Virus record (IMG/VR): IMGVR_UViG_3300028805_000070
Location: 1-64,000 of that record
Direction: 5' to 3' (one strand)
Origin: a virus
Lineage: Duplodnaviria; Caudoviricetes
DNA length: 64,000 nucleotides
The translations under genes and the position numbers were made by a program. A model generated the notes under the pieces. It ran no database searches. It was not told the origin of the DNA and saw only the letters and a program-made list of their open reading frames with translations. Within the stretch, counting starts at the first letter, position 1, and the number at the start of each line of letters is the position of its first letter. This document shows, in pieces, positions 889 to 20,913 of this stretch.

Positions 889-1376
889 TCTCTTCCCTCC
901 TTACACTAATATTATACACAAAATTTTAGAAAAAGTCAAATGTTAGATTGCGCGAAAACGGAGCCTCGCATTTTCACGCCGACGAATTTCCAGCTTGCGG
1001 CGGCTTGTGATATAAAGTTGCGTCGGGTTCCAGCTCCCAGCTTTCCAGCTCGTGGCGGGCCAGCTTTCCGTAGTTGCCAGCTTGTGGAGGCCCCACTCGC
1101 TATCCAGCTTCCAGCTTGTCAGCGTTCCAGCTTTTCTGCGAGGCGATGACGGAGCTTCCAGCGCGAGCTTATGGGAGAAGGGGAGGCGGGCGCGAAGGGC
1201 GAATGATTTGGGGTGGGATGGGTCGAAATGTTCGGAAGCACACGAACGTTTGGGTTGTCAAGAGGGAAATTTAGATGTGATACATCTAATTATTGATGTT
1301 GACTTTTCCTATATTCGTGTTATAATATAGCCAAGAAGTGAAGGAAAACACTGAGAAACCAGAAAGGACTTAGAAA

Positions 1377-1862
1377 ATGACGAAGTATTTGATTGTAAAG
1401 TGCGAAGAACTTGGTGACCAGTATGAATGTGACTGTGCCCGCGAACCTATGTTTCTGGTAGACGATTGGGAAGACTGGTTTAATAAGAACCATCCGACTT
1501 ATCAGTTTGAAGTATATAAGTTCGTAGATGGTGAAGAAGCGGAACTGGTAAAGCAGTACGACGATTATATGGATAAAGGAATGGCGCTGTATTATTGGGA
1601 TAATGATGAAGAAAGCCACGAAGAAGTGGCGCCTACCGTGATTGCACGCTATAAGGATTATGACCGTCATAGTCTTGTGCCGAAGGAGGTCTGGAAGGTT
1701 TTCCGGCAGGGCGCGTATTGGGCAGATGGTGATAAGTTTACTGAAAAAGAATTTAAGGCTGATTTGAAAAGTAGCGGTTATGTTTGCTGGTTGGACAAAG
1801 CGCAGGAAAAATTTTGGGTCTACGGATACTATAAGGACGGATGCTATTGTCTGGGGTATTAA
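1377..1862 (+). CDS. Hypothetical protein (inverted cassette)
   Basis: Palindrome 1271, TTGACT 1299, TG-n-TATAAT 1321, AGAAAGGA RBS, terminator hairpin 1864-1885. Confidence 0.85.
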   Translation: MTKYLIVKCEELGDQYECDCAREPMFLVDDWEDWFNKNHPTYQFEVYKFVDGEEAELVKQYDDYMDKGMALYYWDNDEESHEEVAPTVIARYKDYDRHSLVPKEVWKVFRQGAYWADGDKFTEKEFKADLKSSGYVCWLDKAQEKFWVYGYYKDGCYCLGY

Positions 1863-1985
1863 AAAAGAGGGCTATGCCCTCTTTTCCTTTGTTTTAGAGT
1901 TAGATGTATTACATCTAATACCGAGACTTGACTTTCCCATAAAATCTGATATAATGTGTATGTACTCAGAAAGGAGATGGAAAGT

Positions 1986-2330
1986 ATGAAGAAGATTAAG
2001 TATGAAGATGCCGCCTACATCCGCCGTTATAAGAAGAATCATTGTTTTGAAAAGTATTTCTGCAACTGGTTTATTGAATTAGAGAATCCTAATAGCGGTA
2101 TTATGAAGCTATATATGAAGAGATGGATGTATATTTTACTGTTTATTCCTATACACTGCATTGTATTTGGATGCTGTTTATGGGATGGCGGCATTAAGGA
2201 TTTCAGAATCAATCCTCGTATGATGCGTTGTGATACTGTTGTTGGTTTAACGTGCGACAATGATGAATCTACTATGTTTGGACGCTTTAAGATGATATGG
2301 GAGAAATATAAAGATGAAAAAGATTCTTAA
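1986..2330 (+). CDS. Hypothetical protein with a short hydrophobic segment
   Basis: Palindrome 1900, TTGACT 1928, TATAAT 1950, GAAAGGAG RBS. Confidence 0.75.
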   Translation: MKKIKYEDAAYIRRYKKNHCFEKYFCNWFIELENPNSGIMKLYMKRWMYILLFIPIHCIVFGCCLWDGGIKDFRINPRMMRCDTVVGLTCDNDESTMFGRFKMIWEKYKDEKDS

Positions 2331-2598
2331 AAAGCGTATTGTACTTTATTGCCCGTGGACGAAAGAAACTATTATCGGCGCAGAAGAATATGACGGCGCT
2401 TTGGATGATGAAAATATCTATCTCTCCTTCCACGAAGTGGGCAAGACTGAATGGTGTCCTACGCATCCAGACTATGACGAACTGTGGTATCTTAAACTCT
2501 GCGGGAAGGTACATCTTCCTTATTATAAGGTGCTGATAGATGACTTCTATATCTACGTGCCAACATTTTGGGATAAAGTGAAAAATGCCTTGCGATGA
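2314..2598 (+). CDS. Hypothetical protein
   Basis: Overlaps the stop of the upstream gene (coupled); ends just before palindrome 2615. Confidence 0.7.
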   Translation: MKKILKKRIVLYCPWTKETIIGAEEYDGALDDENIYLSFHEVGKTEWCPTHPDYDELWYLKLCGKVHLPYYKVLIDDFYIYVPTFWDKVKNALR

Positions 2599-2648
2599 GC
2601 AAGACATTTTGTTTTTAGATGTAATACATCTAATTATTAAAAGGGGCA

Positions 2649-2906
2649 TTAACCCCGATAGAGTAGCATCAGAAAATAGACATTAAGCGCCACGCTGGAC
2701 AGGTGCATCAGAACATCATTAATGTGCCGATGCTGGGAGAAGTCTTTGCATACGCCGAAAAGCGCAATGGCAAGGCCGAACCACGATACTTGAAGGCCGA
2801 AAAGCATAATGAGAATTACATTCAAGATGGTAATGCCGCACCGAAGGTCATTCCACTCAAAGCGGTAAGAGGTTTCAATTCCGAACCAGTTTTTAATTGT
2901 CTGCAT
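2649..2906 (-). CDS. Small membrane protein
   Basis: Three hydrophobic stretches; GGAGG RBS. Confidence 0.75.
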   Translation of the reverse strand: MQTIKNWFGIETSYRFEWNDLRCGITILNVILIMLFGLQVSWFGLAIALFGVCKDFSQHRHINDVLMHLSSVALNVYFLMLLYRG

Positions 2907-2907
2907 T

Positions 2908-3141
2908 TTAATCCTCCCATTTGTTCAATTCATATTCTTCAATATGATATTCTGTATAGTCATAATCATCATTACCTTCATAAACAATTTGCGCTTGACT
3001 GTCATCATTCAAAATAACGGGCAAATCAGTACGGAAATTATTATGGTGAATTACTTCACTGATGGCAAGATTCATCGTGGAAAACAATCCACAAGGCCCC
3101 ATTACTTCACCGCTAATACATTCAACAGAGTAGATTTTCAT
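2908..3141 (-). CDS. Hypothetical protein
   Basis: First gene after the palindrome-3217 promoter (TTGACT 3202-3207). Confidence 0.75.
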   Translation of the reverse strand: MKIYSVECISGEVMGPCGLFSTMNLAISEVIHHNNFRTDLPVILNDDSQAQIVYEGNDDYDYTEYHIEEYELNKWED

Positions 3142-3287
3142 TTTCAATCCATCCTTCCCGTTCCTCTTGGAACAATCTTATTATATCAGAATTATAGGAA
3201 AAGTCAACATCATACTTTAGATGTAGTACATCTAATAATTATAAAAATAAAAACGCTCCCTCAGAGGGAGTGTTTTCTTATACTTAG

Positions 3288-3503
3288 TTATTCGGCATCT
3301 TCAATTTCTCTTTCTGTGCGGCGATAATCAGTATAGCCATTTATATAAAAGTCTTTATATACTCTGATAGTATATAGAATCCACTCTTTGGATTCAGAAA
3401 CAACTTCTGTTTCTTCAAGAGGGTCGATTTCCATTTTTACAATATATCCTATTATGGGTATGTCTACTCCACAGAGCTGAACTTTTTGTCCAATCTTATA
3501 CAT
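3288..3503 (-). CDS. Hypothetical protein
   Basis: GTG start overlapping the upstream stop; terminator 3250-3276. Confidence 0.7.
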   Translation of the reverse strand: MYKIGQKVQLCGVDIPIIGYIVKMEIDPLEETEVVSESKEWILYTIRVYKDFYINGYTDYRRTEREIEDAE

Positions 3504-3732
3504 TTTCTTCCTTCTCCTTCTGCATTAATATATTAAGCATATTGACAACCTGATAAGGGTTAATGGTAAAAACGCTTTCGGTTAAGGGGTATTCCTGTGC
3601 AACTTCCAAATTATCAAGCAAGAGCGCAGAAATACCGCCAGGATAATTTTTTGCGTCTTTAATTAATTCTTTTTGCCGTTTCTCGCTGAAATCAAATTCA
3701 AATGTGCCGTGAATGTTGAATTCAAGTTTCAT
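3496..3732 (-). CDS. Hypothetical protein
   Basis: GAAAGGA RBS; promoter under palindrome 3807. Confidence 0.75.
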   Translation of the reverse strand: MKLEFNIHGTFEFDFSEKRQKELIKDAKNYPGGISALLLDNLEVAQEYPLTESVFTINPYQVVNMLNILMQKEKEENV

Positions 3733-3861
3733 TCTCAATCCATCCTTTCCGTTCCCTTGGAACAATTGTATTATATCACATTCTGGGAGAAATGCAAGTC
3801 TTTATTTTAGATGTAATACATCTAATAACTGAAAACAAAATAAGGTTGGCTCGCGCCAACC

Positions 3862-4059
3862 TTACAGTACATCATAGAAAGCAAGAATCTTTTCAATTTT
3901 CGGCACATCCTGTGTGCGGCAAGTCACGACGAAACGAATAGTATCTGATTGCCGATTTACCTTAAAGTCTCCGACACTGCATCCGACACGTTCAATTACA
4001 ATGTTCATAATCTGGCGGCCAATCTGGTTGTACGGAAGATAATAGATACGAGTAGTCAT
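3862..4059 (-). CDS. Small hypothetical protein (65 aa)
   Basis: AAAGGAG RBS; promoter under palindrome 4131. Confidence 0.7.
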   Translation of the reverse strand: MTTRIYYLPYNQIGRQIMNIVIERVGCSVGDFKVNRQSDTIRFVVTCRTQDVPKIEKILAFYDVL

Positions 4060-4183
4060 TTTCATCGCTCCTTTCATCCCTTGGGACGGTCTTATTATAT
4101 CATATCTTGGATAAAAAGCAATAGGTACTATTAGATGTATTACATCTAATTTTATTTGAGGAAAAATACCGCCCGAAGGCGGT

Positions 4184-4268
4184 TGGTGGATATGATGGGA
4201 GTTGCACCCACTTAGCACCTAGTGCCACCCGTACATGGGCTGACAATTACCTGATCGTCCTCATACCC
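4184..4268 (-). tRNA. tRNA-like element (class II, Tyr-GTA-like) with non-canonical anticodon arm
   Basis: Acceptor GGGTATG/CATATCC plus A-CCA end; T arm GTGGG-TGCAACT-CCCAT; variable arm GGCAC-TAG-GTGCT; D arm GACGAT/ATTGTC. Anticodon arm is only GCCC-ATGTAC-GGGT. Terminator 4168-4183. Confidence 0.7.
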
Positions 4269-4282
4269 ATAAAGGGGAGGGC

Positions 4283-4609
4283 TTACGCCCTCCGATAGGT
4301 ATTCGGCTTGCCTTCAATCTTCACAATCTCATCCTGCCACAGATGGGTCAGGGCGTACTGTACCTTACCCTTGGTGATGCCCGAAGGCACATCCTTCTCA
4401 ATGGCTTCCCACAGTTCGCCGCAAGTCACGGGAGTATCGGACAGGGTATCCACAATCAGGGAATGAATGGACTCATACGCTTCGGCGTTCTTCGCCTTGG
4501 CATCTTCACCCTTGTTAATCTCGGCATTCAGAGCATCCATAACTTCCTTGTTGTCATATCCGAAGTTGGTCAGAGCGTCTTTGATGGTCAGGTAGATGGA
4601 TTTCTTCAT
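4283..4609 (-). CDS. Coiled-coil + winged-helix DNA-binding protein, paralog 1
   Basis: Shares AE(I/L)N(K/R)G..KA..N...Y, PVT..E, K.KVQYAL..W...V.K.EGK.N.Y motifs with 8035-8361 and 10572-10904. Confidence 0.75.
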   Translation of the reverse strand: MKKSIYLTIKDALTNFGYDNKEVMDALNAEINKGEDAKAKNAEAYESIHSLIVDTLSDTPVTCGELWEAIEKDVPSGITKGKVQYALTHLWQDEIVKIEGKPNTYRRA

Positions 4610-4699
4610 TTTCAAATTCCTTTCTGGTTTGTAGGGTGTCCTTCCCTTTGTTCGTATTTAGTATATCACAGTTTTGCAACCTTGTCAAGAGTTTTTCAA

Positions 4700-4803
4700 A
4701 AAATTTTTTTTGTTCTTCGGGAGCGTGTTTCGTGTGCGTCCACACAGGGTTGTGCGCCCATCCCATTAAGGCTCGCCTTGGTTTCTCTTGCTTCCCTCGG
4801 AAC
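4700..4803 (-). ncRNA. Putative short non-coding RNA cassette
   Basis: Full promoter under palindrome 4847 but no credible ORF; hairpins AAGGC-GA-GCCTT and GTGTG-GACG-CACAC. Confidence 0.45.
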
Positions 4804-4885
4804 AATTATAGTATACCACAAATTTGGGAAAATGCAAGTATTAGAGTTAGATGTAATACATCTAACGCACTAAAATAAAACTGGC

Positions 4886-5401
4886 TTAATAGCCAGTAAA
4901 GATATTGAAAGCATAGTCAATCATAACGATATGTCCATTTTTCCAACCATAGTTCAGGCAATGCCTATCACCGATATTGTCACAAAGCCATTGCTCTTCT
5001 GATTTATTAGTGATATAAGCTTCGGCATCTCCCGCGCCATCTCTAATATGGCTAATCTTAGGCATAATATAGAAGGTGCGGTTGTAGTTTCTTCTATACG
5101 GAGTAATTTTTGCTAACAGGTGCGCATAGCCCTGTTTCTGCGCATAGCGGTACATTTTGACTTCATCAGCACAGCCGCCGAACCGCCCTTCACCCCAACC
5201 GTGGTAATTGATTTTAATCACATAGTCGGAAGTAATAAAGGCAATGCGAGTAGAACCAGACGCCATCTTAACGTTACGATGGTGGTCAGCATTGAAAAGG
5301 GCTACGGCGTTCGTAAACTGATAAAGCGTTTTGCACTCTTTAATGTAGGGATTAATCTGGGCGATAAACTTCTTAGCACGCTCTTCATAACTCGTCATCA
5401 T
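4886..5401 (-). CDS. Protein-kinase-like fold protein (APH/Ser-Thr kinase-like)
   Basis: ASGSTRIAF (P-loop-like), YVIKI (Lys), catalytic D-R-H-x-x-N, and IDYA (DFG-like). Confidence 0.7.
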   Translation of the reverse strand: MMTSYEERAKKFIAQINPYIKECKTLYQFTNAVALFNADHHRNVKMASGSTRIAFITSDYVIKINYHGWGEGRFGGCADEVKMYRYAQKQGYAHLLAKITPYRRNYNRTFYIMPKISHIRDGAGDAEAYITNKSEEQWLCDNIGDRHCLNYGWKNGHIVMIDYAFNIFTGY

Positions 5402-5507
5402 CTTTCATACCTCCTTCTGACAATATGGATTATATCATAATACAATAAAGAGGTCAAGTATGATTATTAGATGTATTACATCTAATTCCGGGAACGAGGA
5501 AAGTACC

Positions 5508-6497
5508 TCATTCGCCGAGGTACTTCATCAGTCTGTCTATGATATTTTCAAGCCGCTTAGTATAGACAGATTCGTCTTTAGTAGCAAGATAATTTTCAAT
5601 TGCGCTGATTACGACTTTCACTTCTTCCTCATCCGGGCGCTTTCTCCGCATCACAAACTCATCAGTAGTGCCGAGTTCACGGAAGGGGAAGAACATAATC
5701 CCCACGGTGATAGCGCTTTTCTTTGCAATCTTGCTGAGGATATAAGTTTCAATCTTGGCGTCATCCAGAGCAGTATGCGCTTCATCAAATCCATAATCAT
5801 CTTTGAGATAGCGATAACTCGCTTCGGCACTGGTTTTGAAAAAAGTCCCACTTGCGGTCAGCATTTCATTTTTCAGGCAGTTCTTCTTGTAGGTGGCATT
5901 ATTCAGGAGATGCTTTGTTGCCAGACCCCACAGGTCAAACAGCGGGAAATCCTCATCACGGAAACGAAAATTGTCCGCATCGAAAGTTTTTTCTTCATCC
6001 TTCTGATAACGTTCGTTAGCAATCTTATAACAAAGCTTGCGCTGTACTTCTTCCCACTTGTAATAATCGGGAGAATACAGTTTCTTGATATACAGGTCAG
6101 TGAAAGGAATCGCCTTCTTAAAATCAAACATAGAATTATAAGCGCCCACGGAGTCAACCTTGTGGAGGTCGGCCAGAAGGATTTCCGCAACTTCGTTCCA
6201 AGGCTTAACAACAGTTTCACCCTTTTTAAGCATATCCAGATAGAGAGGACGCTTTTCTGCATAATAAGCGGTGTTAAACACGGCAGGGACGGAGAAAGTT
6301 TCTGCAATCAGAAATTGCTTACTGTCCAGAATCTCACCCTTGCGGTTGGTAATAGTCCAACCAATATCATAAATCAGAGGACGGGCAATAGCAATCTTTT
6401 TCTTCTTTTCCGCATCGCCGTCAGCGATTTCATTGGCAAAGGGCAGAGTAGCAGTTTCACAATCCAGAACCATATGCCGATTTTCCTTACGACCCAT
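5508..6497 (-). CDS. DEDDh 3'-5' exonuclease (DnaQ/RNase T-like), paralog 1
   Basis: ExoI VLDCET, ExoII AYNSMFD, ExoIII EAHTALDD. Confidence 0.85.
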   Translation of the reverse strand: MGRKENRHMVLDCETATLPFANEIADGDAEKKKKIAIARPLIYDIGWTITNRKGEILDSKQFLIAETFSVPAVFNTAYYAEKRPLYLDMLKKGETVVKPWNEVAEILLADLHKVDSVGAYNSMFDFKKAIPFTDLYIKKLYSPDYYKWEEVQRKLCYKIANERYQKDEEKTFDADNFRFRDEDFPLFDLWGLATKHLLNNATYKKNCLKNEMLTASGTFFKTSAEASYRYLKDDYGFDEAHTALDDAKIETYILSKIAKKSAITVGIMFFPFRELGTTDEFVMRRKRPDEEEVKVVISAIENYLATKDESVYTKRLENIIDRLMKYLGE

Positions 6498-6647
6498 TTT
6501 TGCTCCTTTCCTGCGTGGGTTTCATTACGGCGGTTTTCCTTCCGCTAATTCTTGCGTCCCTCTCGGAACAATGATAGTATATCACATTATAGGAAAAATG
6601 CAAGAGGGATAATTAGATGTATTACATCTAAGTATTAAAAAAGGAAG

Positions 6648-6839
6648 TTAGCTTTCGCTAACTTCCTCGATACTCACATTAATCAGTTTATATTCCTTAG
6701 TCATATCAAACACGCATCCGCACTTATCGCAAGTGCAAGTCCACCACTGTTCACCGCCGTACATATCGAAACCATCGCCATAGTCATTGATTTCATAGTC
6801 TTCGCAACCACACTTGGGACAGGCTTCAATATACTTCAT
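6648..6839 (-). CDS. Small zinc-ribbon protein
   Basis: CPKC...CDKC; start overlaps the upstream stop. Confidence 0.7.
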   Translation of the reverse strand: MKYIEACPKCGCEDYEINDYGDGFDMYGGEQWWTCTCDKCGCVFDMTKEYKLINVSIEEVSES

Positions 6840-7164
6840 TTTCTTTCTTCTCCTTTTCTCTACGTTCCTTATCTTTCTTGGCCTTCTCGGCGCGAGCCTT
6901 AGCGGTTTCTTCCTTCTTTGCCTGCTTGGCGTTATATTCATCAATTTCCTTCTGCATCAGTTCTTCGGCGGTCATATCCTCGCGCTCTTCGGCGACAATC
7001 GCGCCGATACGCACATACCGCTGGACACCATTCAAGTCAGTGATAAGGACACCATACTGACGATCATTAACCTTAATAAAGTTCTGAATCTCATTGGTAA
7101 AAATAGCTTCAAACACGGCTTCACGCAACTGCTTGTCAACTACATTCTTAGAAATCTTAGCCAT
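6826..7164 (-). CDS. Hypothetical protein with Lys/Ala/Glu-rich helical tail
   Basis: Similar layout to 7493-7900. Confidence 0.75.
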   Translation of the reverse strand: MAKISKNVVDKQLREAVFEAIFTNEIQNFIKVNDRQYGVLITDLNGVQRYVRIGAIVAEEREDMTAEELMQKEIDEYNAKQAKKEETAKARAEKAKKDKERREKEKKENEVY

Positions 7165-7170
7165 TTTCTA

Positions 7171-7371
7171 TCACATCCTTTCTCTATCCTGCCGTTTGTT
7201 TGCTTCTTCTGCAAGAGCGGAAAAGATTCTATTCATAAGTTTCGGAGTCAGGTCAGAGTAACTAAGACTGACTTCCTCACAGGACGAATAATGTTCAAAG
7301 TCTCCTTCTACAATCTCATCATACAAATTTGAGATGTTCAGTGTCTTAGTGATTTCAATGTCAATCTTCAT
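7171..7371 (-). CDS. Hypothetical protein
   Basis: AAACCAGAAAGGA leader; promoter under palindrome 7459. Confidence 0.7.
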   Translation of the reverse strand: MKIDIEITKTLNISNLYDEIVEGDFEHYSSCEEVSLSYSDLTPKLMNRIFSALAEEANKRQDRERM

Positions 7372-7492
7372 TTTCAATTCCTTTCTGGTTTTCTGGTGTT
7401 TTCCTTCACCTTTCGTGGATAGTATAGCACGGATTTCGGGAGTAGTCAAGTCAGATAATTAGATGTATTACATCTAATTTCCTAAAATGATA

Positions 7493-7900
7493 TTACTCCC
7501 CTTTGGGAGTAATATCAATTTTACGGAGTTCTTTCAAGCCCTTGTTAGCTTCGGCAAGTGCCTTCTTTTCCTCTCGGGCCTTCTGGTCTTTGGCAATCTT
7601 GGCCTGCTTCTTCGCATCGGCGGCGGCCTTCTTTTCGGCCTTGTCTGCCTGCTCCATCTGGTAGTCCTCAGCGGCGGCATAGCCATCATAGGGGTCATAG
7701 CCATTCCCGTTGCGAGTACCACGGGGAACGCTGACTTTCACAACCACCCACGTTTCGTTACCTTCGGCATTCAGGCAGGGGATAGCAATCTCGCTTGTGC
7801 TCACACGGAGCACATCGGCGTCACGCTCGTCCTCGATTGCCTTGCTTACCAGTTCCAGAAATTCGTTACGGAGAAGAGTTTCCAACTGCGACTTATTCAT
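7493..7900 (-). CDS. Hypothetical protein with Lys/Ala-rich helical tail
   Basis: GAAAGGAG RBS; TTGACT 7953-7958. Confidence 0.8.
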   Translation of the reverse strand: MNKSQLETLLRNEFLELVSKAIEDERDADVLRVSTSEIAIPCLNAEGNETWVVVKVSVPRGTRNGNGYDPYDGYAAAEDYQMEQADKAEKKAAADAKKQAKIAKDQKAREEKKALAEANKGLKELRKIDITPKGE

Positions 7901-8034
7901 CCAACATCACTCCTTTCTGATTACATAGTAATTATAACATAATTTTGAAAAAAGTCAAGTATTTTTTTTATTGGATTCTGTATACAATTTAGATGTAATA
8001 CATCTAATTCTCCAACGAAAAAAAAGAGGGACGC

Positions 8035-8361
8035 TTACGCGTCCTTCTTGGCAGAGTAGGTATTGACCTTGCCCTCGGTCTTCGTGACCTCTTCGGCCCA
8101 GTAGTTCCGGAGGCCGTAGACAATCTTGCCCTTGGCATAGCCAGTCTCTTCGGCCAGTTCCTGAGCAGTCACCGGGACAGTGGCAGAGCGCAGGACTTCC
8201 ATCACCGCATCGTGGATTTCCTCATACAGGGCGCGATTGGCATCGGCCTTCTCCTTGCCCTTGTTGAGTTCGGCTTCCAGTTCGGCCTTGATTTCGTCCA
8301 GATTGGTAACAGTCTCACCGTTCAGATGGGCAACCAGAGCTTCGATAGTGTTCTTCTTCAT
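8035..8361 (-). CDS. Coiled-coil + winged-helix protein, paralog 2
   Basis: Same motifs as 4283-4609; own TTGACA promoter near 8437 without a palindrome. Confidence 0.75.
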   Translation of the reverse strand: MKKNTIEALVAHLNGETVTNLDEIKAELEAELNKGKEKADANRALYEEIHDAVMEVLRSATVPVTAQELAEETGYAKGKIVYGLRNYWAEEVTKTEGKVNTYSAKKDA

Positions 8362-8454
8362 AATTAAATCCCTTTCTGGTTTGTGGGGTTTTCCTTCCCC
8401 TCTTTTCATATTCATTATAGCACTTTGTGCTTATAATGTCAAGTGTTTTTTGAA

Positions 8455-8583
8455 ATTTTCCAAGGTTAAAGTTTCGTTCATTGGCGAGAGGACTTCAACC
8501 CTGAGATTCGCTCCTTTGTACGATTTACGGCCGTTTACGTACTCGGCATTGCCTTGGAGTAGGAATCCCTTGTCCCTTGGAAC
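8455..8583 (-). ncRNA. Putative structured short RNA
   Basis: A-tract TTGACA promoter near 8613, GTTCC leader, closing stem CCAAGG/CCTTGG, inner stems GTACG/CGTAC and GCGA/TCGC; no ORF with RBS. Confidence 0.45.
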
Positions 8584-8773
8584 ATCCTTATTATAGCACA
8601 GGATTTGGTGCTTGTCAAGGGGTTTCTGAAACTTTTTTTTGTTTCTCGTTCGAGTCCGCTCTCGCTCGCCCTTCCCCTTGGAACGATTATAGTATAGCAT
8701 AACTTTGATAGGAATGCAAGTGTTTTTTGCGCGAGAAATTAGATGTAATACATCTAATAAGAAAAAACCGGGA

Positions 8774-9541: not shown

Positions 9542-9664
9542 AAGTCCTTTCTGGTTTTTGGTGAGGTATCCTTCCTCTTATCGTTACGATTATATCACAA
9601 TAACGGGAAAACCGCAAGCGTATAATTAGATGTATTACATCTAAAATCTCAAAATGAAATTGGG

Positions 9665-10904: not shown

Positions 10905-11156
10905 AATCATTTTCCTTTCTGGTTTGTGAGGTGGCCTTCCTCTTTCTTACGGGACTATTATATCACCGATTCAGCATCTTGTCAAGAGGTTTTTCAAACT
11001 TTTTTTCAGTTTCCTCTTGGTAAGCTGTCCTTACCTCGGGTGTTCCGTGTCCCTCGGAACAATTATTATTATACTCAAATTTCGGGAAAAGTCAACAATT
11101 GGAGTTAGATGTAATACATCTAATTATTTGATTTGAAAAAAACTAAGGCTTGCGCC

Positions 11157-12176: not shown

Positions 12177-12301
12177 CTTTCTCTCTCCTTTCGTTGTCCC
12201 TCTCTCTTGGAACAATTGTATTATATCACAATATAGGAAAATTGCAATAGGAGAAGTTAGATGTATTACATCTAATTCTTTGAAACCAAATTGGTTATGA
12301 C

Positions 12302-12448
12302 TTATTCCAGCTCCTTCCCTTTATGCTTTGGCTTTTTATTGCGCTTATCTGGAATAACGCGAGTTACACAATAACCCTGCGGAAACTCCTTGCGCTCGGA
12401 CTGGAATACCTCCACCCACGTTTTAGGTTGCTTCTTCTTCTTGCTCAT
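12302..12448 (-). CDS. Small basic protein (48 aa, MSKKKKQPKTW...)
   Basis: Not in the ORF track. AAAGGAG RBS, TAA 12302-12304, promoter under palindrome 12517. Confidence 0.7.
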   Translation of the reverse strand: MSKKKKQPKTWVEVFQSERKEFPQGYCVTRVIPDKRNKKPKHKGKELE

Positions 12449-12550
12449 AATCTTCTCTCCTTTCCTTGGTACGTTGTAAGTATATCATAATCATACGTAA
12501 TTGTCAATTCTTATAATTAGATGTAATACATCTAAATATAAAAGTTACCC

Positions 12551-12817
12551 TCAGTCGAGGGTAACATCATACCACGCATAATCGCCCCATGTGCCGCCAT
12601 CAAAATGTTCTGATACATAATCGTCCCAGGCTTCTTCCTCATCGGTATAATCGCAATCTTCCAGCCACCAATTGAAGTCCTTATAAATCGAATAATTATC
12701 ACGGTGTTCTTCAAACCAATCACGGCAGGCTTGCCGAATCGGTTCGATAGTAGTATAAGCGTGAAGGGGTTCACCTTCCAATGTCAGAACGTATATCGTT
12801 TTACTTTCCTGTTTCAT
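12551..12817 (-). CDS. Acidic hypothetical protein
   Basis: Single-gene cassette; very Asp/Glu/Trp/Tyr-rich. Confidence 0.75.
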   Translation of the reverse strand: MKQESKTIYVLTLEGEPLHAYTTIEPIRQACRDWFEEHRDNYSIYKDFNWWLEDCDYTDEEEAWDDYVSEHFDGGTWGDYAWYDVTLD

Positions 12818-12933
12818 CGTAAGCACTTCCTTTCTGTCCCTTCGGACAAGTGTATTCTATCATATTTTTAGGAAAAGCGCAAGAGATAGAATTAGATGTA
12901 TTACATCTAATTATTCAAAACCAAATTGGCGCC

Positions 12934-13257
12934 TTAGCGCCAAATGGTCTTTCCGCCCTGCGTATATTTACTCTGATTGTGGTCTACCTTTTTCCGCAGG
13001 AAGTTCGGTACTTTCTTCGGGCCACCGTACACGGCTACCAGCTCACGCTGAGTGGTTACGTACATCGTGATAACTTTCAGCTTGTCCTCGGATTTAATGA
13101 TTGTAATGCCCGTGTCAGTGATGCACACATAGCACCCAGCTTGTCCCAGCCCACGGCCGCGGTACTGCTCGCGTACTACCTGTCCGATGCCGATTTCTTC
13201 CACGATATGCTGAACCCGGTTTGCTCTCTGCACTGCCACGTGATAGGTCATTTCCAT
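12934..13257 (-). CDS. Hypothetical protein
   Basis: Single-gene cassette between palindromes 12892 and 13334. Confidence 0.75.
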   Translation of the reverse strand: MEMTYHVAVQRANRVQHIVEEIGIGQVVREQYRGRGLGQAGCYVCITDTGITIIKSEDKLKVITMYVTTQRELVAVYGGPKKVPNFLRKKVDHNQSKYTQGGKTIWR

Positions 13258-13379
13258 TGCTCTTTCTCCTTTCTCTGTCCCCTTTGGACAAGTATATATT
13301 AGCATATCTTAAAGGAAAAAGCAAGAGGAAGAATTAGATGTATTACATCTAATTCGTATAAGGGTAAGCGCCGAAGCGC

Positions 13380-13613
13380 TTACTCATTATCAACAATCTC
13401 CCAATCGCCGGCGGTCAGGATGTTTCCGAGGTCTTTCTCTACAAAGTCAAAGCCCTCGCGCCGAGCTTCTACTACCAGATCTTCCAGCTGTTCCATAAAA
13501 TACTCAGCTCTCCGCTTGCGGTGGGCAATCTGACCAAAAATGTCAGCCAGACGGTCCATTTCATCCGCGCTCATAATATCAGTGTTAATCATCGTTCCGC
13601 CAATACGTACCAT
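13380..13613 (-). CDS. Hypothetical protein
   Basis: Single-gene cassette between 13334 and 13689. Confidence 0.75.
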   Translation of the reverse strand: MVRIGGTMINTDIMSADEMDRLADIFGQIAHRKRRAEYFMEQLEDLVVEARREGFDFVEKDLGNILTAGDWEIVDNE

Positions 13614-13731
13614 TTTCTTTCCTTCCTTTCTTGTCCCTTTGGACAAGTATAATATATCACAACCATAGAAGAATGTCAATCATAGAAGTTAGATGTAATA
13701 CATCTAATTACAAGAAACCGGGTGAACCCGG

Positions 13732-13956
13732 TTAAATGGCCTTGGCGTAATAGACAAGCGACATCCCAGTTTCGGGAGAGCAGTTGTAATAAAAGATTGC
13801 GTTACACAGCTTATCAAAGTCGGCGGTGGGGTCATCAGCTGGTTTAGTAGTCCAGCTTGCCAGCATACCATCGGGCCGGACGCGGTTGGGAATAATCATA
13901 ACTTCTTCGCCCTCGTTGTAGAGTTTCCGTGCCATACCCTTAGTAATCTTAACCAT
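13732..13956 (-). CDS. Hypothetical protein
   Basis: Single-gene cassette between 13689 and 14033. Confidence 0.75.
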   Translation of the reverse strand: MVKITKGMARKLYNEGEEVMIIPNRVRPDGMLASWTTKPADDPTADFDKLCNAIFYYNCSPETGMSLVYYAKAI

Positions 13957-14073
13957 ATCTGATTCCTTCCTTTCTGTCCCCTTCGGACAAGTATATAATA
14001 TCATAAATCGGGAAAAATGTCAAACGATAGAATTAGATGTATTACATCTAATTTTTAAAGAGTGACCGCAAGG

Positions 14074-14268
14074 TCACCACTCGATTGGCTTCAATTCTAC
14101 TTTATATCGGATAGTATAGTCATGTCCATCAATAGTAATGGTGCGGCAGGCGGAGTAAGGAAAGCACTCAGATAGAGAAGTGACGTCGGGGAACATATCA
14201 AAGGTGACGTCTACCATATTTACTGCATCATCAGCAAGCGCGTGAAGGGTATTTTTCAGTTCTTCCAT
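14074..14268 (-). CDS. Hypothetical protein
   Basis: Single-gene cassette; AAACCAGAAAGGA leader. Confidence 0.7.
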   Translation of the reverse strand: MEELKNTLHALADDAVNMVDVTFDMFPDVTSLSECFPYSACRTITIDGHDYTIRYKVELKPIEW

Positions 14269-14400
14269 TGTCGTGTCCTTTCTGGTTTGGGAGGTTGCCT
14301 TCCTCTTTACGTACACATTATATCATATTATGGGATAAAGTCAAGCAGTAAAGTTGGATGTATTACATCTAATAGTGAAGAATGAAATAAGGCAAGGGAT

Positions 14401-14643
14401 TTATTCCCTTGCCATTACTTCCTTGTAGTCGAGGTCTAACCATTCGCACACCGTTTCAAAGTCAAACCAGAAGAAATCATTTACTTCGGTGATACTCATA
14501 GGCTCGTCACCAGTTGTGGCGTTAATTTCTTCCAACTGGTTTTCAATGCTATCCAGCTCTTCGGGTGTTAACTTGGCGGCATTGCTTGCGGCGCTACCCC
14601 AGAAATGGAAATCCCTCAGTCTTTTTTCAATCGTCATTGTCAT
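14401..14643 (-). CDS. Acidic hypothetical protein
   Basis: F.FW..A...A..LT.EELD.IE..L...T..NDFFWF pattern; single-gene cassette. Confidence 0.75.
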   Translation of the reverse strand: MTMTIEKRLRDFHFWGSAASNAAKLTPEELDSIENQLEEINATTGDEPMSITEVNDFFWFDFETVCEWLDLDYKEVMARE

Positions 14644-14773
14644 TTTCTTTCGCTCCTTTTCTTTTTCTCTGTTCCCTTGGAACAATTGTATATTATCATA
14701 ATTTATGTAAGAAGTCAACGGTTAAAGTTGGATGTATTACATCCAAATATAAAAGAGAATTAAGGCCGAAGCC

Positions 14774-15004
14774 TTAATTCTCTATGAATCCATATAGAGA
14801 ATAGTAAGTAATGTCGGTGTTGTATTCATTAACGCTCTTTTCGCGCTCGATGCCCAGCTTGCGCTCCCATTTCTGTAACTCCAGCTCGCCTTGCCGGTTA
14901 TCTACAATCAGAAACAGGTCAACTTCGGCTTCCGTATCATAGTAGCCGATGCGGGTCTCATTGATGTGTGGGCCGCAAGTCATGGTGATGCTGATGGTTT
15001 TCAT
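14774..15004 (-). CDS. Hypothetical protein
   Basis: Single-gene cassette. Confidence 0.7.
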   Translation of the reverse strand: MKTISITMTCGPHINETRIGYYDTEAEVDLFLIVDNRQGELELQKWERKLGIEREKSVNEYNTDITYYSLYGFIEN

Positions 15005-15123
15005 TGCTTCTTCCTTCCTTTCTCTCCCCTTGGAGTGATTATAGTATAACATAGAGATAGGGAAGTGTCAATAGAGATAATTAGATGTAATACATCCAAA
15101 TTTACCACAAAGAAAATGGTTGC

Positions 15124-15363
15124 TCACGAATGAGCAACCACACGCCCGTTGCGGGCAATGTATTCTTCAAAAGTACGCGGTCCCAGCTCGCTCATAGCCT
15201 GCGTCCAGCTTGCCATCAGGTACACGCGCCCAGCGCGCCCGCCGAGGAACGAGGTTGCCAGCTCGCGCAGCTTACGCTCGCTTCTTACGGAAGAGGGCAC
15301 CTTAATCTGTCCATCGTTACCCATAGGGATCCATCCGGTATTGTCTGCATAGAACATATACAT
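15124..15363 (-). CDS. Hypothetical protein
   Basis: Single-gene cassette; GAAAGGAG RBS. Confidence 0.7.
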   Translation of the reverse strand: MYMFYADNTGWIPMGNDGQIKVPSSVRSERKLRELATSFLGGRAGRVYLMASWTQAMSELGPRTFEEYIARNGRVVAHS

Positions 15364-15489
15364 TGCTTCAATCTCCTTTCTTGTTCCTCTCTCTGAGGAC
15401 AATATCATTATATCATATTATAAGGAAAAGTCAAGTCGGGAAATTGGATGTAATACATCCAAATAAAGTGAAATAAAATAAACCGGGGT

Positions 15490-15765
15490 TCAACCCCGGT
15501 TTTCAATTTCGCCTGTATGAATATTGAACCGCATATTGTTGAGATACAGATGTTTGGCCAACTGATAAGTAAATCCCAATTCGCGCATGAACCATCCGAT
15601 GTGCTTAATGGTAGTGCGGCTATACAAACCGCTAATTTCCATCCAGCCTTCCGCATTGATTCCAATAACCGCCGTGGCGTAGCTTACCAGCGTCATAGCA
15701 CCGTTGTCGTACTTATAAACCTTAACCTGTGCGCTCTCGTGGCCCTTAATCTTTTCGATACTCAT
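15490..15765 (-). CDS. Hypothetical protein
   Basis: LVSY.T.V...I.GLYSRTT.KHI pattern common in small phage proteins; GAGG RBS. Confidence 0.75.
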   Translation of the reverse strand: MSIEKIKGHESAQVKVYKYDNGAMTLVSYATAVIGINAEGWMEISGLYSRTTIKHIGWFMRELGFTYQLAKHLYLNNMRFNIHTGEIENRG

Positions 15766-15876
15766 TGCTTTTACCTCTCTTTTATTTATTGTCCCTTCGG
15801 ACAAGTGTATATTATCATACTTATAAGAGAATGTCAACACGTATTTTTGGATGTAATACATCCAAACCGCGCGTAT

Positions 15877-16160
15877 AAAAAAGAGCGGTTGCCCGCTCCG
15901 GCTGTTTGCCCGCACATTTACGGACTCAAGTTCGTTTTTCCCGAACAGGGCGCCACCCTTTGCATCCATCCTACCAGCCCCGGGGTCCCAGATGCTCCCC
16001 TGTTGTTGCCTCAACATTTAAGCCAGCTCCCAGCTGACCCCAGGCTCCTCACCTGTATACCGCGTAGTAGGACTTCGGCGCGCGGTTGGTTCATCGGGTA
16101 GCGGTCTTACGGACTCTCGTGGGTCGCACCTCTTGGCTTTGCCGCCCCTCCCCTTGGAAC
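15877..16160 (-). ncRNA. Structured non-coding RNA, copy A (~285 nt)
   Basis: Promoter under palindrome 16205, terminator 15877-15898, GC-rich, no RBS-linked ORF; homologous to 17305-17600 with compensatory stem changes. Confidence 0.75.
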
Positions 16161-16233
16161 ATGTATAGATTACCACTTTTCGATGAAAAAAGCAAGAGGG
16201 CAAGTTGGATGTAATACATCCAAATATACGTAA

Positions 16234-16517
16234 TAAAAAAAGAGCCGTTCGGCTCTGTGTCAACAGGGTCCGGGGCATCCTCGTTTCCCGGTTTTGAAGG
16301 TCTTACACGAGCAACTCGCGCTCTCGCAACTGGCTTCTGCCTCCCTGGGGCTTGTTAAGGCGGTGGCCATCCGCCATTCAGTTGTCAAGGTTCAATGCCG
16401 GCCTTGGGGCTCCTGCCCTCAACCGACTGGGTGCTTACCTCCCGCCCATGTGGCCCGCTTCGCACCTGCCCGCGGGCCGGAGGGCCTCAATCCCCATCGG
16501 AATCACCTCCCGTTGAT
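16234..16517 (-). ncRNA. GC-rich structured RNA cassette containing a 20-codon sORF (16435-16497)
   Basis: Promoter under palindrome 16562 (TATACT 16524-16529), terminator 16234-16256, multiple hairpins; GGAGGTG RBS before MGIEALRPAGRCEAGHMGGR. Confidence 0.55.
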
Positions 16518-16613
16518 GGATAGAGTATAGCACTAACCGTCGAAAAGCGCAAGACCTCAATTTGGATGTATTACATCCAATTTATATAGGGCGCATTTAT
16601 GCGCCTTACGCCA

Positions 16614-16769
16614 TTACCGCCAAATGACGCGGTACCACTGCTTTTTCGCCCAATTTTCCGCGCCCTTGCGGGTTTTGAAAAACTTGACGCGCTCGCCCTG
16701 CTGCCCTGCACCCGTCCATTTCCAAATCTCAAAACCGCCGCGCATTTCGTAAATTTCGTAGTACATCAT
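16614..16769 (-). CDS. Small hypothetical protein
   Basis: Single-gene cassette; FKTRKGAENWA motif. Confidence 0.7.
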   Translation of the reverse strand: MMYYEIYEMRGGFEIWKWTGAGQQGERVKFFKTRKGAENWAKKQWYRVIWR

Positions 16770-16896
16770 GTTTCTGTTCCTCCCCTCTCTTGATGCCCTT
16801 ATTATACACCCGGTTACGGGAATTGTCAACGATTATTTTGGATGTAATACATCCAAACGATTTAAAAATGAAATTGCCCGGTTTCGGGCAATTTCG

Positions 16897-17208
16897 TTAG
16901 CAGTAGACAAGCGACATATCTTTCCATTTCAAAATTGAAATTTGCTTATGTTCGCGCCCAATGGCGAGCGCCTGTTTTTTGGTACTAATGCGGAAACTAT
17001 GGTCAATATAGTAAATTCCTTCACTGTACCAAATACCACAATTTCCCTGTAGTTGACGTACTACCTTTATGGCGGCTTCCGCCGTTGTCAATTCATACCC
17101 GTAATCCGCCACCTGATATCCCGTCTTATAGGTAATAGGCTTGCCCGCTTTGAGTGTGAGCCCGTCATTGTTCTGCAACTTCCTCAATGTCCGCACGTTG
17201 ATCATCAT
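16897..17208 (-). CDS. Hypothetical protein
   Basis: G.W...G.YYID.S......A...G....Q.SI..W pattern; GGAG RBS. Confidence 0.75.
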   Translation of the reverse strand: MMINVRTLRKLQNNDGLTLKAGKPITYKTGYQVADYGYELTTAEAAIKVVRQLQGNCGIWYSEGIYYIDHSFRISTKKQALAIGREHKQISILKWKDMSLVYC

Positions 17209-17304
17209 GGTGTCCTCCCTTCTTTGATGGTATAAGTATATCATAAAATGTGCGGACGCGCAAGACTTTAATTTGGATGTAATACATCCAATTATTGCAT
17301 AAGC

Positions 17305-17600
17305 GAAAATTCCTGGTACTACATTCCCCGGAATTTTCTAACCGATTTCAACGGATCCTTTCCGTTTTCCCTACGGCTGACGGGAAGGGGAGGTCTTCAC
17401 GAGATGAATCCCTGCCTGTTTCAGTCCCCTGCAGGTGCTGCCTCGACATTTGAACCAGCTCCCAGCTGATCCCACAGCTCGCCACTGTGTATCCCGCACC
17501 ATCTCGCTCTTTCGGCGTGCGGCCGGTTCATCGCGCGTGGTCTTACAGACTCTCATGGGTCACACCCGCCTTAGGGCTCTGCCCGCGCTCCCCTCGGAAC
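17305..17600 (-). ncRNA. Structured non-coding RNA, copy B (~295 nt)
   Basis: Promoter under palindrome 17645, terminator 17305-17338; paralog of 15877-16160. Confidence 0.75.
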
Positions 17601-17740
17601 AAGTATAGAATATCACTAACAGGGCTATATGTCAACACGGGAAGTTGGATGTATTACATCTAAAAGCGTGTCTTGCTTTTATAGCCTAAATGTGTTATAT
17701 TATAATCACTCCAAAGGGAGGAAGAAAGGATGGTAGAAAC

Positions 17741-17908
17741 ATGAAAGAGTATTTCTGGATGCACAAGGAAAACGGTTATCTGGTACGGGAAAGTGGTTTG
17801 TTTGATGATGCTATGCTGAATGGCTATGACGACATCACGGACCCCTGTTCCGTGGAATATGGCAATTATGAATTATATTATGAAAAGACAAACATGGCGG
17901 TTAAATAA
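17741..17908 (+). CDS. Small hypothetical protein (inverted cassette)
   Basis: TTGCTT 17673 lies 9 bp right of palindrome 17645; GAAAGGA RBS; terminator 17894-17918, then palindrome 17923. Confidence 0.75.
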   Translation: MKEYFWMHKENGYLVRESGLFDDAMLNGYDDITDPCSVEYGNYELYYEKTNMAVK

Positions 17909-17972
17909 CCGCCATTTCTATATTGGATGTAATACATCCAAAAGTGCCTACGCGAAAAAGAAGGAAGAGACC

Positions 17973-18152
17973 TCAAGTCTCTTCCCACCACTGACAACCG
18001 TAGGAAAGGCACCAATTTACTATCCCTTCCTCTGTGTAACCATTCCGGTTTACTCCGTACAGACGAAGAGTAAAAGCATTTATGGAAGGACGATACCAAT
18101 AAGCACCGATTACCTCGCCGAATTCGTTTGCAATCTTTCCTTTAGTCAACAT
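17973..18152 (-). CDS. Small hypothetical protein (59 aa, MLTKGKIANEFGE...)
   Basis: Not in the ORF track. GGAGG RBS, TGA 17973-17975, A-tract TTGACA promoter near 18208. Confidence 0.7.
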   Translation of the reverse strand: MLTKGKIANEFGEVIGAYWYRPSINAFTLRLYGVNRNGYTEEGIVNWCLSYGCQWWEET

Positions 18153-18407
18153 CGTTGGTTTCCTCCCCTTCTTTGATGATGCTATTATAGCATAGTTGAT
18201 TCATATTGTCAACTACTTTTTATAAAAAATAAAAAAATTTTCGGCGTGTCAAATATATCAAAATCGGACGATCCACTTTGCATAGGTGAATGATTGTTAT
18301 TACTACATACTATTCTATTAGACAAGTATACCATACACATGGTATGCCTGTCAACACTGATAATTAGATGTATTACATCCAATTAGGTATAAAAAAAAAG
18401 AAGGGCC

Positions 18408-18692
18408 TCAAAGCCCTTCCGCATAACCGCCATAACGAATCTGTACAATAATATCGTCATGAATCCATTCCGTGTCGTTGTCGTTCATTATCATAGAGAC
18501 AATATCATCAATATCCCAATCTTCAATCCCTTCAAAAGCCCACATATCGCCATTACAATCCTCACAGTATACCACATCATTATCATAATCAATTTCCCGC
18601 ACAATGGCAGTAGTTGGATAGATATCCGCATAAGCGCAGATGCTGGACAGAGTAATGATAACGGTGATGGTGATCATGATGGCCTTCTTCAT
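18408..18692 (-). CDS. Secreted/membrane-anchored acidic protein
   Basis: N-terminal MKK plus hydrophobic signal ending AYA. Confidence 0.75.
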   Translation of the reverse strand: MKKAIMITITVIITLSSICAYADIYPTTAIVREIDYDNDVVYCEDCNGDMWAFEGIEDWDIDDIVSMIMNDNDTEWIHDDIIVQIRYGGYAEGL

Positions 18693-18844
18693 AGTAATTC
18701 ATCCTCTCTGGTTTAGTGGGTTTTCCTTCCCTTTTTGATGATACAAGTATAGCACTTATAAGCGCGCCAGTCAACACTTTCTTTTGGATGTAATACATCT
18801 AAAAAGTATAAAAGAGAAAAGGATTTATATCCTTTTCTCTTTTT

Positions 18845-18973
18845 TTACTTCATTGGACGTACTTCTAAGAAATCTGCTACTTCCCGATGCCACCGGATCC
18901 AACTTTCTGCTACTTCCTTAGAAAGCTCGCTCACGTACACCCGCCCAGTCAATTTTCCATACACTTCGAACAT
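18845..18973 (-). CDS. Small hypothetical protein (42 aa, MFEVYGKLTGRV...)
   Basis: Not in the ORF track. AAGGAGG RBS, TAA 18845-18847. Confidence 0.65.
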   Translation of the reverse strand: MFEVYGKLTGRVYVSELSKEVAESWIRWHREVADFLEVRPMK

Positions 18974-19081
18974 TTTGCATGCCCTCCTTTATTTGATGCT
19001 TAATTATAACATACACTTTTCTAATCGTCAATACTTTATTTTGGATGTAATACATCCAAAGGCGCAAGAGCGCCGAAGCGC

Positions 19082-19267
19082 TCAGTATTTGTAAGTTGGA
19101 TACATGGTCAACCTTTGCTCGGCCTGGTGCTCCTTTTGCTCGGCTCTCAATTTGGCCGCGCCCATCAACGTCCACCCGATTAGCTCGCATACGGCAACAG
19201 CCCCAAGTGGGGCGAAGCTCCCAGCTATCAGCCCGCCCAGTACGATCCCAGCTCCTATTACTAACAT
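19082..19267 (-). CDS. Small membrane protein
   Basis: Two hydrophobic helices; AAAGGAG RBS embedded in AAGCTGG repeats. Confidence 0.65.
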   Translation of the reverse strand: MLVIGAGIVLGGLIAGSFAPLGAVAVCELIGWTLMGAAKLRAEQKEHQAEQRLTMYPTYKY

Positions 19268-19403
19268 TGTTCCAGCTCCTTTCCAGCTTGCAGCTTCCAG
19301 CTTCCAGCTTGCTTACGCGTGTATATACGGTATAAGCGAGATGTGGGTGGGCGTGGGCGTTGTCGATGTAAGGGATCGGCGCCCGAGCCGCTGCTTACTT
19401 TCG

Positions 19404-19715
19404 TGTGGTAAAGCGTGAAAGCGGTGGATAACTTTCCACGCCCTTGTGGAAAACTTTCCACAACCTTCGTAACATTTCTGTAACATTTCCGCTCGCTCCC
19501 TTCCTAATTTATATGGATATTATATCTTTTTGTTACAAGTTAGTCAACACTAACACTTGGATGTAATACATCCAAAGCTCCGGAACCGTTGAAAAATAAG
19601 GGTTTGCGCCGTTTTGCCAGACTTTGGTCTATTGTTACAGAAATGTTACATTTTGTCGTATCTGGTAAAATCCGAACATTTTTTAAGTTTATCAAAAAAA
19701 ATGTTCGGATTTTTT
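19404..19715. promoter_or_regulatory. Cluster of DnaA-box-like sites, two TGTTAC-N5-TGTTAC boxes and an inverted repeat, followed by an AT-rich tract
   Basis: GTGGATAA/TTTCCAC and TGTGGAAAA/TTTCCACA at 19424-19462; 17-bp inverted repeat 19469-19485 / 19633-19649; inverted repeat ~19667-19713. Confidence 0.5.
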
Positions 19716-20888: not shown

Positions 20889-20913
20889 AAAATAAAGGAG
20901 GTGTTGAAATATA

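Follow-up and report, generated by a model that had tools for sequence, protein, structure and literature searches.

Our analysis concerns a repeat array in a large, uncultured tailed phage, IMG/VR virus record IMGVR_UViG_3300028805_000070, and the window that we analyzed, meaning the whole stretch of DNA at its full length, is the first 64 kb of this 133,082-bp record, which is estimated to be 75% complete. At one end of the window lies a series of small genes and RNAs, each with its own promoter and terminator, that are delimited by a 19-bp palindrome, TTRGATGTA-N-TACATCYAA. An earlier note, made from the letters of the window, had reported 37 copies of this palindrome at 1271-19575 and none among the core genes. 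We recovered all 37 matches, every one within this interval, and none in 100 dinucleotide shuffles, and a scan of the whole record revealed no further copy outside 1271-19575. All but one of the copies (36/37) are exact to the degenerate consensus, the copy at 1271 having one mismatch. The features of the array are as follows.

1271 to 19575, no single strand: the whole array, 37 palindromes bounding about 36 units of terminator, palindrome, promoter, leader, and gene or RNA.
1271 to 2633, plus strand: distal convergent block; palindromes 1271 and 1900 are each followed at 9 bp by a promoter on the plus strand, TTGACT-16-TATAAT.
3217 to 7477, minus strand: seven palindromes of 19 bp each (3217, 3807, 4131, 4847, 5467, 6613, and 7459), 9 bp upstream of a minus-strand -35 box.
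7989 to 8007, minus strand: palindrome separated from its -35 box by 30 bp, equal to 9 bp and two helical turns.
8739 to 8757, minus strand: palindrome separated from its -35 box by 19 bp, equal to 9 bp and one turn.
9626 to 9644, minus strand: palindrome with an 8-bp gap.
10187 to 16580, minus strand: sixteen palindromes (10187, 10509, 11105, 12257, 12517, 12892, 13334, 13689, 14033, 14354, 14728, 15081, 15444, 15847, 16205, and 16562), all with a 9-bp gap and minus-strand promoters.
16838 to 16856, minus strand: palindrome with an 8-bp gap.
17273 to 17291, minus strand: palindrome with a 9-bp gap.
17645 to 17663, both strands: double-sided palindrome with a -35 box at 9 bp on either side (TTGACA on the minus strand, TTGCTT on the plus strand).
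17923 to 17941, no strand: orphan palindrome without a promoter on either side, as expected after inversion between two palindromes.
18364 to 19575, minus strand: four palindromes (18364, 18784, 19041, and 19557) with a 9-bp gap, at the promoter-proximal end of the array, beside a divergent sigma-like gene.

In minus-strand orientation, 9 bp separate almost all copies from a TTGnnn -35 box, after which come a spacer of 16 to 18 bp and an extended -10 box, TGnTAnnnT. The gap between palindrome and -35 box measures 9 bp at 31 copies (29 on the minus strand and 2, at 1271 and 1900, on the plus strand), 8 bp at 2, 19 bp at 1, and 30 bp at 1, while 2 copies have no promoter, a distribution identical to that given in the earlier note. 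The reading given there needs correction in that the array does not run in one direction throughout: most of it is read from the minus strand, but the palindromes at 1271 and 1900 serve plus-strand promoters and that at 17645 serves both sides. The plus-strand promoters at 1271 and 1900 drive the open reading frames (ORFs) 1377-1862 and 1956-2330, respectively, and the palindrome at 2615 is an orphan at the convergence point of this distal block, which is conserved in relatives. Both promoter-less copies, 2615 and 17923, are located at meeting points of convergent units. Since the 9-bp gap also holds for plus-strand and shared divergent promoters, the geometry is independent of orientation. 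Intrinsic terminators are enriched in the array (51 versus 18.7 in shuffles) and are positioned just upstream of most palindromes.

We found the same 19-mer as a single block of 25 to 38 copies in five related viral records of 116 to 188 kb, and the layout is common to at least 13 related arrays. Over 13 arrays with 326 promoters, whose palindrome copies are partly homologous across genomes so that the counts represent non-independent events, the gap is 9 bp in 263 cases, 8 bp in 13, and 10 bp in 10. The other gaps mostly fall at 17 to 21, 28 to 33, or 39 to 40 bp, and the intervals 11 to 16, 24 to 27, and 34 to 38 bp are empty. This much of the master operator with helical phasing that the earlier note had envisaged is borne out across the 13 arrays: the gap is fixed in length, and the exceptions fall in phase. 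In a sequence logo of 87 copies from five genomes, 16 of the 19 palindrome positions reach about 2 bits, whereas the 9-bp gap stays near 0 bits; it is therefore the length of the gap, and not its sequence, that is selected. The center base has no strand preference, and hybrid half-sites occur, with G at position 3 and T at position 17, indicating that the sequence is conserved rather than the pairing of a hairpin.

This last point bears on the idea that the palindrome extrudes as a DNA hairpin, which a phage polymerase would use, as in N4, as its promoter or signal for entry. A stem of 8 bp with a 3-nt loop could indeed form, and the phage encodes giant virion proteins. However, the hybrid half-sites break the pairing, the center base favors neither strand, canonical sigma-A promoters follow every site, and the 4,756-amino-acid (aa) protein is a tape measure protein in which no polymerase domain was found. 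We reject this explanation and give it next to no credence.

With the 9-bp gap and a 17-bp spacer, the site derived from the sequence extends from about -63 to -45, with its center near -54. The fixed length of a gap of unconserved sequence, the phased exceptions, the orientation independence, the restriction to one subclass of promoters, and the presence of other palindromes in a similar register in distant relatives together argue that the 19-bp palindrome is probably an operator at a single class of early promoters, where a dimeric factor bound to it contacts RNA polymerase. In this scenario, a dimeric DNA-binding protein on the palindrome would touch the host RNA polymerase, and the 9 bp between site and -35 box would leave room for one alpha C-terminal domain beside sigma region 4. 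We infer this contact from the geometry of the site.

The restriction to a subclass emerges from the rest of the genome, which contains about 29 other equally strong sigma-A-type promoters, mostly in the replication and tRNA region at 64 to 132 kb, none of them with the palindrome; the palindrome therefore marks a promoter subclass. As the site sets the roughly 35 array promoters apart from these, it most likely gives them a timing of their own. About 16 of 27 strong promoters outside the array (64 to 132 kb of the record, minus strand) carry AT, often as TAT or ATAT, directly before the -35 box, which the array promoters do not, and this may be the mark of a second promoter class.

As the array promoters are already near consensus, we favor shut-off or feedback repression over activation, albeit by a narrow margin. 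Several points weigh against the operator reading. The role is read from geometry and conservation, the gap counts come from copies that partly share descent, promoters near consensus with an extended -10 box should need no activator, and a site at -54 does not occlude the polymerase, leaving neither sign of control obvious. A bound palindrome could instead act as an insulator or roadblock against read-through from upstream, in the manner of a stoperator and without regulating initiation. Each site does stand directly after the terminator of the upstream unit, and orphan copies persist between convergent units. Yet a roadblock would work without any set helical register relative to the -35 box downstream, most sites already have an intrinsic terminator before them, and the site is symmetric where stoperators are asymmetric and oriented (PMC9283540), all of which make this explanation improbable.

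The operator reading extends to more distant relatives, located by means of the early protein encoded at 5508-6497, through the motifs that they carry. Some at 55% early-protein identity are without this palindrome and have TGKACGTCCA 23 bp upstream of the -35 box instead, in the same register at more than a dozen promoters, while a relative at 62% identity has a TTAATTAAA...CCGG...TTTAATTAA palindrome; both kinds sit in a fixed register about one turn further upstream. In one clade, a symmetric change, TTAGATGTT-N-AACATCTAA, is found in every copy. Relatedness and motif type are not aligned: G004, a standard-code phage of 116 kb whose portal is 35% identical, nevertheless has the identical 19-mer at the same 9-bp gap, whereas L118, which is closer to G000 by early protein P9 (55% versus 27% for G004), has a different motif. 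A megablast of the array against known phages gave no match, and a literature search for the palindrome motif returned chance primer matches only.

These relationships matter for the nature of the factor. A transcription factor of the host, recruited or titrated by the phage, may bind the palindrome, with the operator scheme otherwise unchanged, and we regard this as possible, the balance being clearly on the other side. The identical 19-mer in G004, whose core proteins are 25 to 55% identical to those of G000 and which has no conserved small phage DNA-binding protein in common with it, would be explained, as would a motif type that does not track phage relatedness (L118 versus G004), and a factor needed in the first minute of infection must predate phage gene expression. 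Against this, among 185,579 species genomes the exact 19-mer turns up 28 times, always as a singleton and in taxa unrelated to one another, about the chance expectation, and its 15-mer core, with at most one mismatch, reaches a maximum of 5 per genome in 401 Clostridia genomes, similar to the control; as the host is not identified, both negatives are weak. The symmetric variant in all copies of one clade also fits coevolution with a phage factor. One of the singletons, in a Clostridiales metagenome-assembled genome, lies within a longer palindrome between LacI-type and TctC-type genes, and we judged it to be chance or unrelated.

That the binder is encoded by the phage itself has a somewhat better prospect, only a little short of even. 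The best candidate is a multicopy family of early proteins inside the array, together with a distant long form.

4283 to 4615, minus strand: winged-helix paralogue P7b; a palindrome-free promoter of its own has its -35 box at 4688.
8035 to 8361, minus strand: winged-helix paralogue P12; the -35 boxes of its palindrome-free promoters are at 8618 and 8442.
10572 to 10910, minus strand: winged-helix paralogue P16, with a weak DUF6958 match, an AlphaFold2 (AF2) model of predicted local distance difference test score (pLDDT) 93, and a palindrome-free promoter (-35 box at 10985).
114 to 602, minus strand: long-form winged-helix protein, distantly related and encoded outside the array, past its end; its promoters at 939 and 715 have no palindrome.

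On the AF2 model (pLDDT 93), which places a long N-terminal helix before three helices and a beta hairpin, the family of P7b, P12, and P16 is predicted to be a winged helix, the hairpin forming the wing. The model matches the folds of ArsR, HlyU, Fur, BlaI, MarR, and Hop2 domains with probabilities of 0.9 to 0.99 and E values no better than 0.02, and a profile of the family matches the Hop2 winged helix with an E value of 0.005. A Pfam search of the 34 array ORFs found no DNA-binding family at E <0.05 except for weak DUF6958 and HTH_11 matches. Of the 29 cassettes of the winged-helix family, 24 have an additional strong promoter that lacks the palindrome, compared to 34 of 320 other cassettes, as expected of a regulator that escapes its own control; these promoters could thus let the winged-helix genes evade the control common to the array. 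A TKxK[VL]QYAL recognition helix is found in at least one paralogue of every genome with this palindrome type except G004.

That exception counts against a phage-encoded factor. G004 has only one divergent winged-helix member, with a different recognition helix, and since its 19-mer is identical although it has no winged helix of the TKxKVQYAL type, the candidate is weakened and room is left for a host factor. Moreover, a comparison of G000, G002, and G004 revealed no small phage protein that is well conserved between them. Three further candidates were set aside. The HTH_3 protein at 94323-94523, the only one in the genome, has a G002 orthologue that differs in its recognition helix and no orthologue in G004, which likewise does not help the case for a phage protein; the ORF at 19890-20690 beside the array has a homologue only in G002; and the sigma-like gene is 23.5% identical in G004 although the palindrome is identical.

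The palindrome-free internal promoters themselves (4660-4720, 8414-8650, 10957-11020, and 18184-18245) share an upstream element consisting roughly of GAAAC, A7-8, GTTTC, and AAAAAC just before the -35 box. Promoters with this element mostly precede winged-helix genes, and it could be an UP element or a second operator.

The palindromes are also, as judged from genome comparison, where related phages gain, lose, and flip units. The clearest event in the window is a single cassette.

17645 to 17941, plus strand: inverted single cassette, with homologues in G001 and G003 in array orientation and homology running exactly from palindrome to palindrome.

Its high-scoring segment pair is plus/plus, whereas all others are plus/minus. 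Across arrays, an orphan palindrome beside a double-sided one is the signature of a single inverted cassette, from which it follows that both breakpoints of the inversion lie within palindromes, and we count 7 independent inversions of this type in different cassette families, confirmed by orientation relative to homologues. When gene-content breakpoints were compared between pairs of arrays, a check proposed in the earlier note along with the motif scan of relatives reported above, 27 of 29 indel junctions fell at the palindrome-promoter module and 19 overlapped the palindrome itself; as no pair of arrays is more than about 82% identical, these breakpoints are resolved to the module and not to the base, which tempers the case. 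Cassette maps of the 13 arrays display a conserved backbone of order with presence or absence of whole units and a few transpositions, so that the cassette shuffling suggested in the earlier note is upheld as gain and loss of units but not as free shuffling.

The same note had offered the palindrome as a recombination site, and its place at inversion and indel junctions agrees with that. A dedicated site-specific recombination system acting on it, in the manner of an integron or invertase, with the fixed promoter distance arising only from a promoter that travels along, is another matter. Inversions and indels that end at palindromes, and orphan and double-sided sites that come in pairs, would be expected of it. 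However, serine (PF00239) and tyrosine (PF00589) recombinases are absent from G000, G002, G003, G004, and G005, four of which are essentially complete; the gap sequence drifts while its length stays at 9 bp or 9 bp plus whole turns, which requires selection on its position with respect to RNA polymerase; the order of cassettes has a conserved backbone; and every unit has its own promoter, unlike integron cassettes. Dedicated recombination is thus not supported, and we consider it very unlikely. In direct events the homology covers the promoter, and in inversions it is confined to the 19-mer; given this extent of homology at junctions and the lack of a site-specific recombinase, the repeats likely recombine in the ordinary way or by template switching. 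As all units have the palindrome-promoter module in common, it also serves, as comparison with relatives shows, as a joint at which units are deleted, inserted, moved, or inverted, probably by general recombination, and a newly acquired gene would thereby come under early control at once.

The palindromes also vary along the array. From 14354 upward, positions 3 and 17 are mostly G and C (TTGGATGTA type), so that this variant is clustered in the 14 promoter-proximal units (14354-19575 versus 1271-14051), and the units concerned include some whose G001 and G003 orthologues have the A/T variant. This clustering, in particular where orthologues differ, suggests local gene conversion between palindromes.

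A bolder scheme, which we put forward tentatively and hold to be possible rather than probable, combines the two roles. A phage winged-helix dimer would gate the roughly 35 early promoters by phase-locked contact with RNA polymerase, and its operator would double as the crossover point for cassette exchange, resulting in a self-regulating platform for gene capture whose lineages diversify by switching operator and regulator together. If this is true, a unit that is recombined in at a palindrome would be wired into the early program immediately and without an integrase.

With respect to cargo, the description in the earlier note of unrelated orphans is accurate for most units, which encode small orphan proteins, but it overlooks three to four winged-helix paralogues, two DEDDh-exonuclease-like paralogues, and the related pair P10/P11. 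The paralogous early proteins at 5508-6497 and 8774-9541 (minus strand), with a DnaQ-like DTETTG motif (phrog_20187), are the best-conserved cassette cargo across all arrays. P11 (7493-7900), P10 (6826-7164), and the N terminus of the protein at 114-602, all on the minus strand, have in common a small domain, IxIPC...G...V.V, followed by a Lys/Ala/Glu-rich tail; as this domain is fused to a winged helix in the protein at 114-602, the early proteins look modular. Several units contain no ORF. Those at 15866-16204, 17292-17644, and 16224-16561 are rich in G+C and have a promoter and a terminator without an ORF linked to a ribosome-binding site, and two of the three are paralogous over about 290 nt. 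An Rfam search of 1 to 21 kb, the ORF-less units included, identified no family.

Many early transcripts begin with a 5'-terminal leader hairpin of 5 to 7 bp, composed of TGTYCC, a purine-rich loop, and GGRACA (for example, at 14670-14684, 15789-15804, and 12835-12848).

14670 to 14684, minus strand: leader hairpin of the form TGTTCC-loop-GGAACA.

The hairpin is present in 82 of 262 array leaders, compared to about 11 in shuffles, and the two stem types that predominate are distinguished by a compensatory pair; a role as a 5' stabilizer is possible. About eight genes (for example, near 9541, 7371, 14268, 10910, 4615, and 19890), among them the plus-strand gene at 19890, have another leader motif, AAACCAGARAGG, that overlaps their ribosome-binding site.

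The array adjoins a divergent sigma-factor-like gene (20908-22185) in all relatives examined. Downstream of the array, the genes for the tape measure protein, a 2,531-aa protein, the portal, and the terminase are open only when TAG is read as sense; the gene for the 4,756-aa tape measure protein contains 137 TAG codons and that for the 2,531-aa protein 44. Such late and structural genes occupy 20908-59877 of the window (plus strand) and include many at 60 to 133 kb of the record. The 34 array ORFs, in contrast, have no in-frame TAG and none ends in TAG (24 end in TAA and 10 in TGA), and the early program should therefore be readable both before and after the code switch of the phage. ARAGORN found 20 tRNAs at 118 to 132 kb of the roughly 75% complete record and no suppressor with a CUA anticodon. 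The phage is a long-tailed siphophage, as its 4,756-aa tape measure protein attests, and since the five related records contain no integrase or resolvase, it looks strictly lytic. At 60 to 133 kb, the record also holds free-standing genes of the homing-endonuclease type (four GIY-YIG, two PD-(D/E)XK [PDDEXK_5], and one LAGLIDADG) as well as genes for a formate/nitrite transporter and a class III ribonucleotide reductase.

If the operator reading is true, the array is a natural system of unusual clarity in which a single operator is linked to tens of promoters, all with the same fixed geometry, and is exchanged for other operators between clades. It would be suited to the study of how a regulator and its many sites coevolve and of how a lytic phage times its host-takeover genes, and its modules (strong promoter, operator, stabilizing 5' hairpin, and terminator) are compact and directly testable parts. 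A regulatory repeat that forms a joint where orphan genes are gained, lost, and inverted in phages of Gram-positive type would, furthermore, extend an idea developed for T4-type phages and considered at the end of the comparison below.

The system resembles an integron in that small cassettes, mostly of orphan genes, follow one another in a line between palindromic repeats and are gained, lost, and reordered. It differs in that an IntI-type tyrosine recombinase (PF00589) is absent from the five genomes, in that the palindromes are perfect and 19 bp long whereas attC sites are imperfect and 60 to 120 bp long, and in that each cassette has its own promoter and terminator instead of depending, without a promoter, on a common Pc. 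A serine-recombinase invertase switch is equally distant, the resolvase/invertase gene (PF00239) being absent from the same five genomes.

Sets of many operators are known from other phages, such as the conserved inverted repeats of phiC31 and the dispersed C1 operators of P1. Class I regulators contact the alpha C-terminal domain, as do CRP at -61.5, -71.5, and further turns and p4 of phi29, for which contact with the polymerase can activate or repress strong phage promoters. As with CRP and p4, a dimer site lies upstream of the -35 box here and the permitted positions differ by whole helical turns, and the gap histogram of 326 promoters, with its fixed distance and alternatives at whole turns, is class I-like in this respect. 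The differences are that the center is near -54, that about 35 promoters are targeted in one genome, that no homology to CRP or p4 exists, and that the polymerase contact is inferred.

The closest parallel in organization is provided by the promoter early stem-loop (PeSL) cassettes of T4-type phages, in which dozens of modules made of a terminator and a strong early promoter of the sigma-70 type flank small orphan genes (PMC2839356, PMC4122927). Both systems have composite promoter-terminator modules, small orphan genes, and a plastic region in which recombination between modules underlies indels and swaps, such recombination having been proposed as the source of plasticity for PeSLs (PMC2839356, PMC4122927), and the array accordingly displays a repeated promoter-terminator module and small orphans in a hyperplastic region with indels that end at modules. 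However, the stem-loop of a PeSL is a G/C-rich terminator, and its placement with respect to the promoter differs among five subclasses (PMC2839356, PMC4122927), whereas the array has an additional invariant 19-bp palindrome at a fixed helical register, separate from the terminator, clade specific, and absent from the other strong promoters of the genome. Inversions bounded by palindromes are not part of the PeSL description (PMC2839356, PMC4122927), and the array belongs to a long-tailed siphophage with Gram-positive-like signals and has no homology to T4-type PeSLs, the megablast against known phages having given no match.

Stoperators of cluster A mycobacteriophages are asymmetric sites of 13 to 14 bp, oriented with transcription, that are bound by a monomer and block elongation (PMC9283540, PMC6550527). 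They occur in temperate phages, whose immunity repressor is the protein that binds them (PMC9283540, PMC6550527). The likeness lies in tens of near-identical sites over a phage region for one DNA-binding protein and in lineage-specific motifs, but the array has a symmetric 19-mer that occurs in both orientations, is locked to the -35 box, and is found without an integrase, which sets it apart from stoperators. In conclusion, none of these systems, whether PeSLs, stoperators, the operator sets of phiC31 and P1, or class I regulators such as p4, combines an invariant symmetric operator locked to tens of early -35 boxes in a lytic phage with clade-specific operator swaps and palindrome-bounded inversions.

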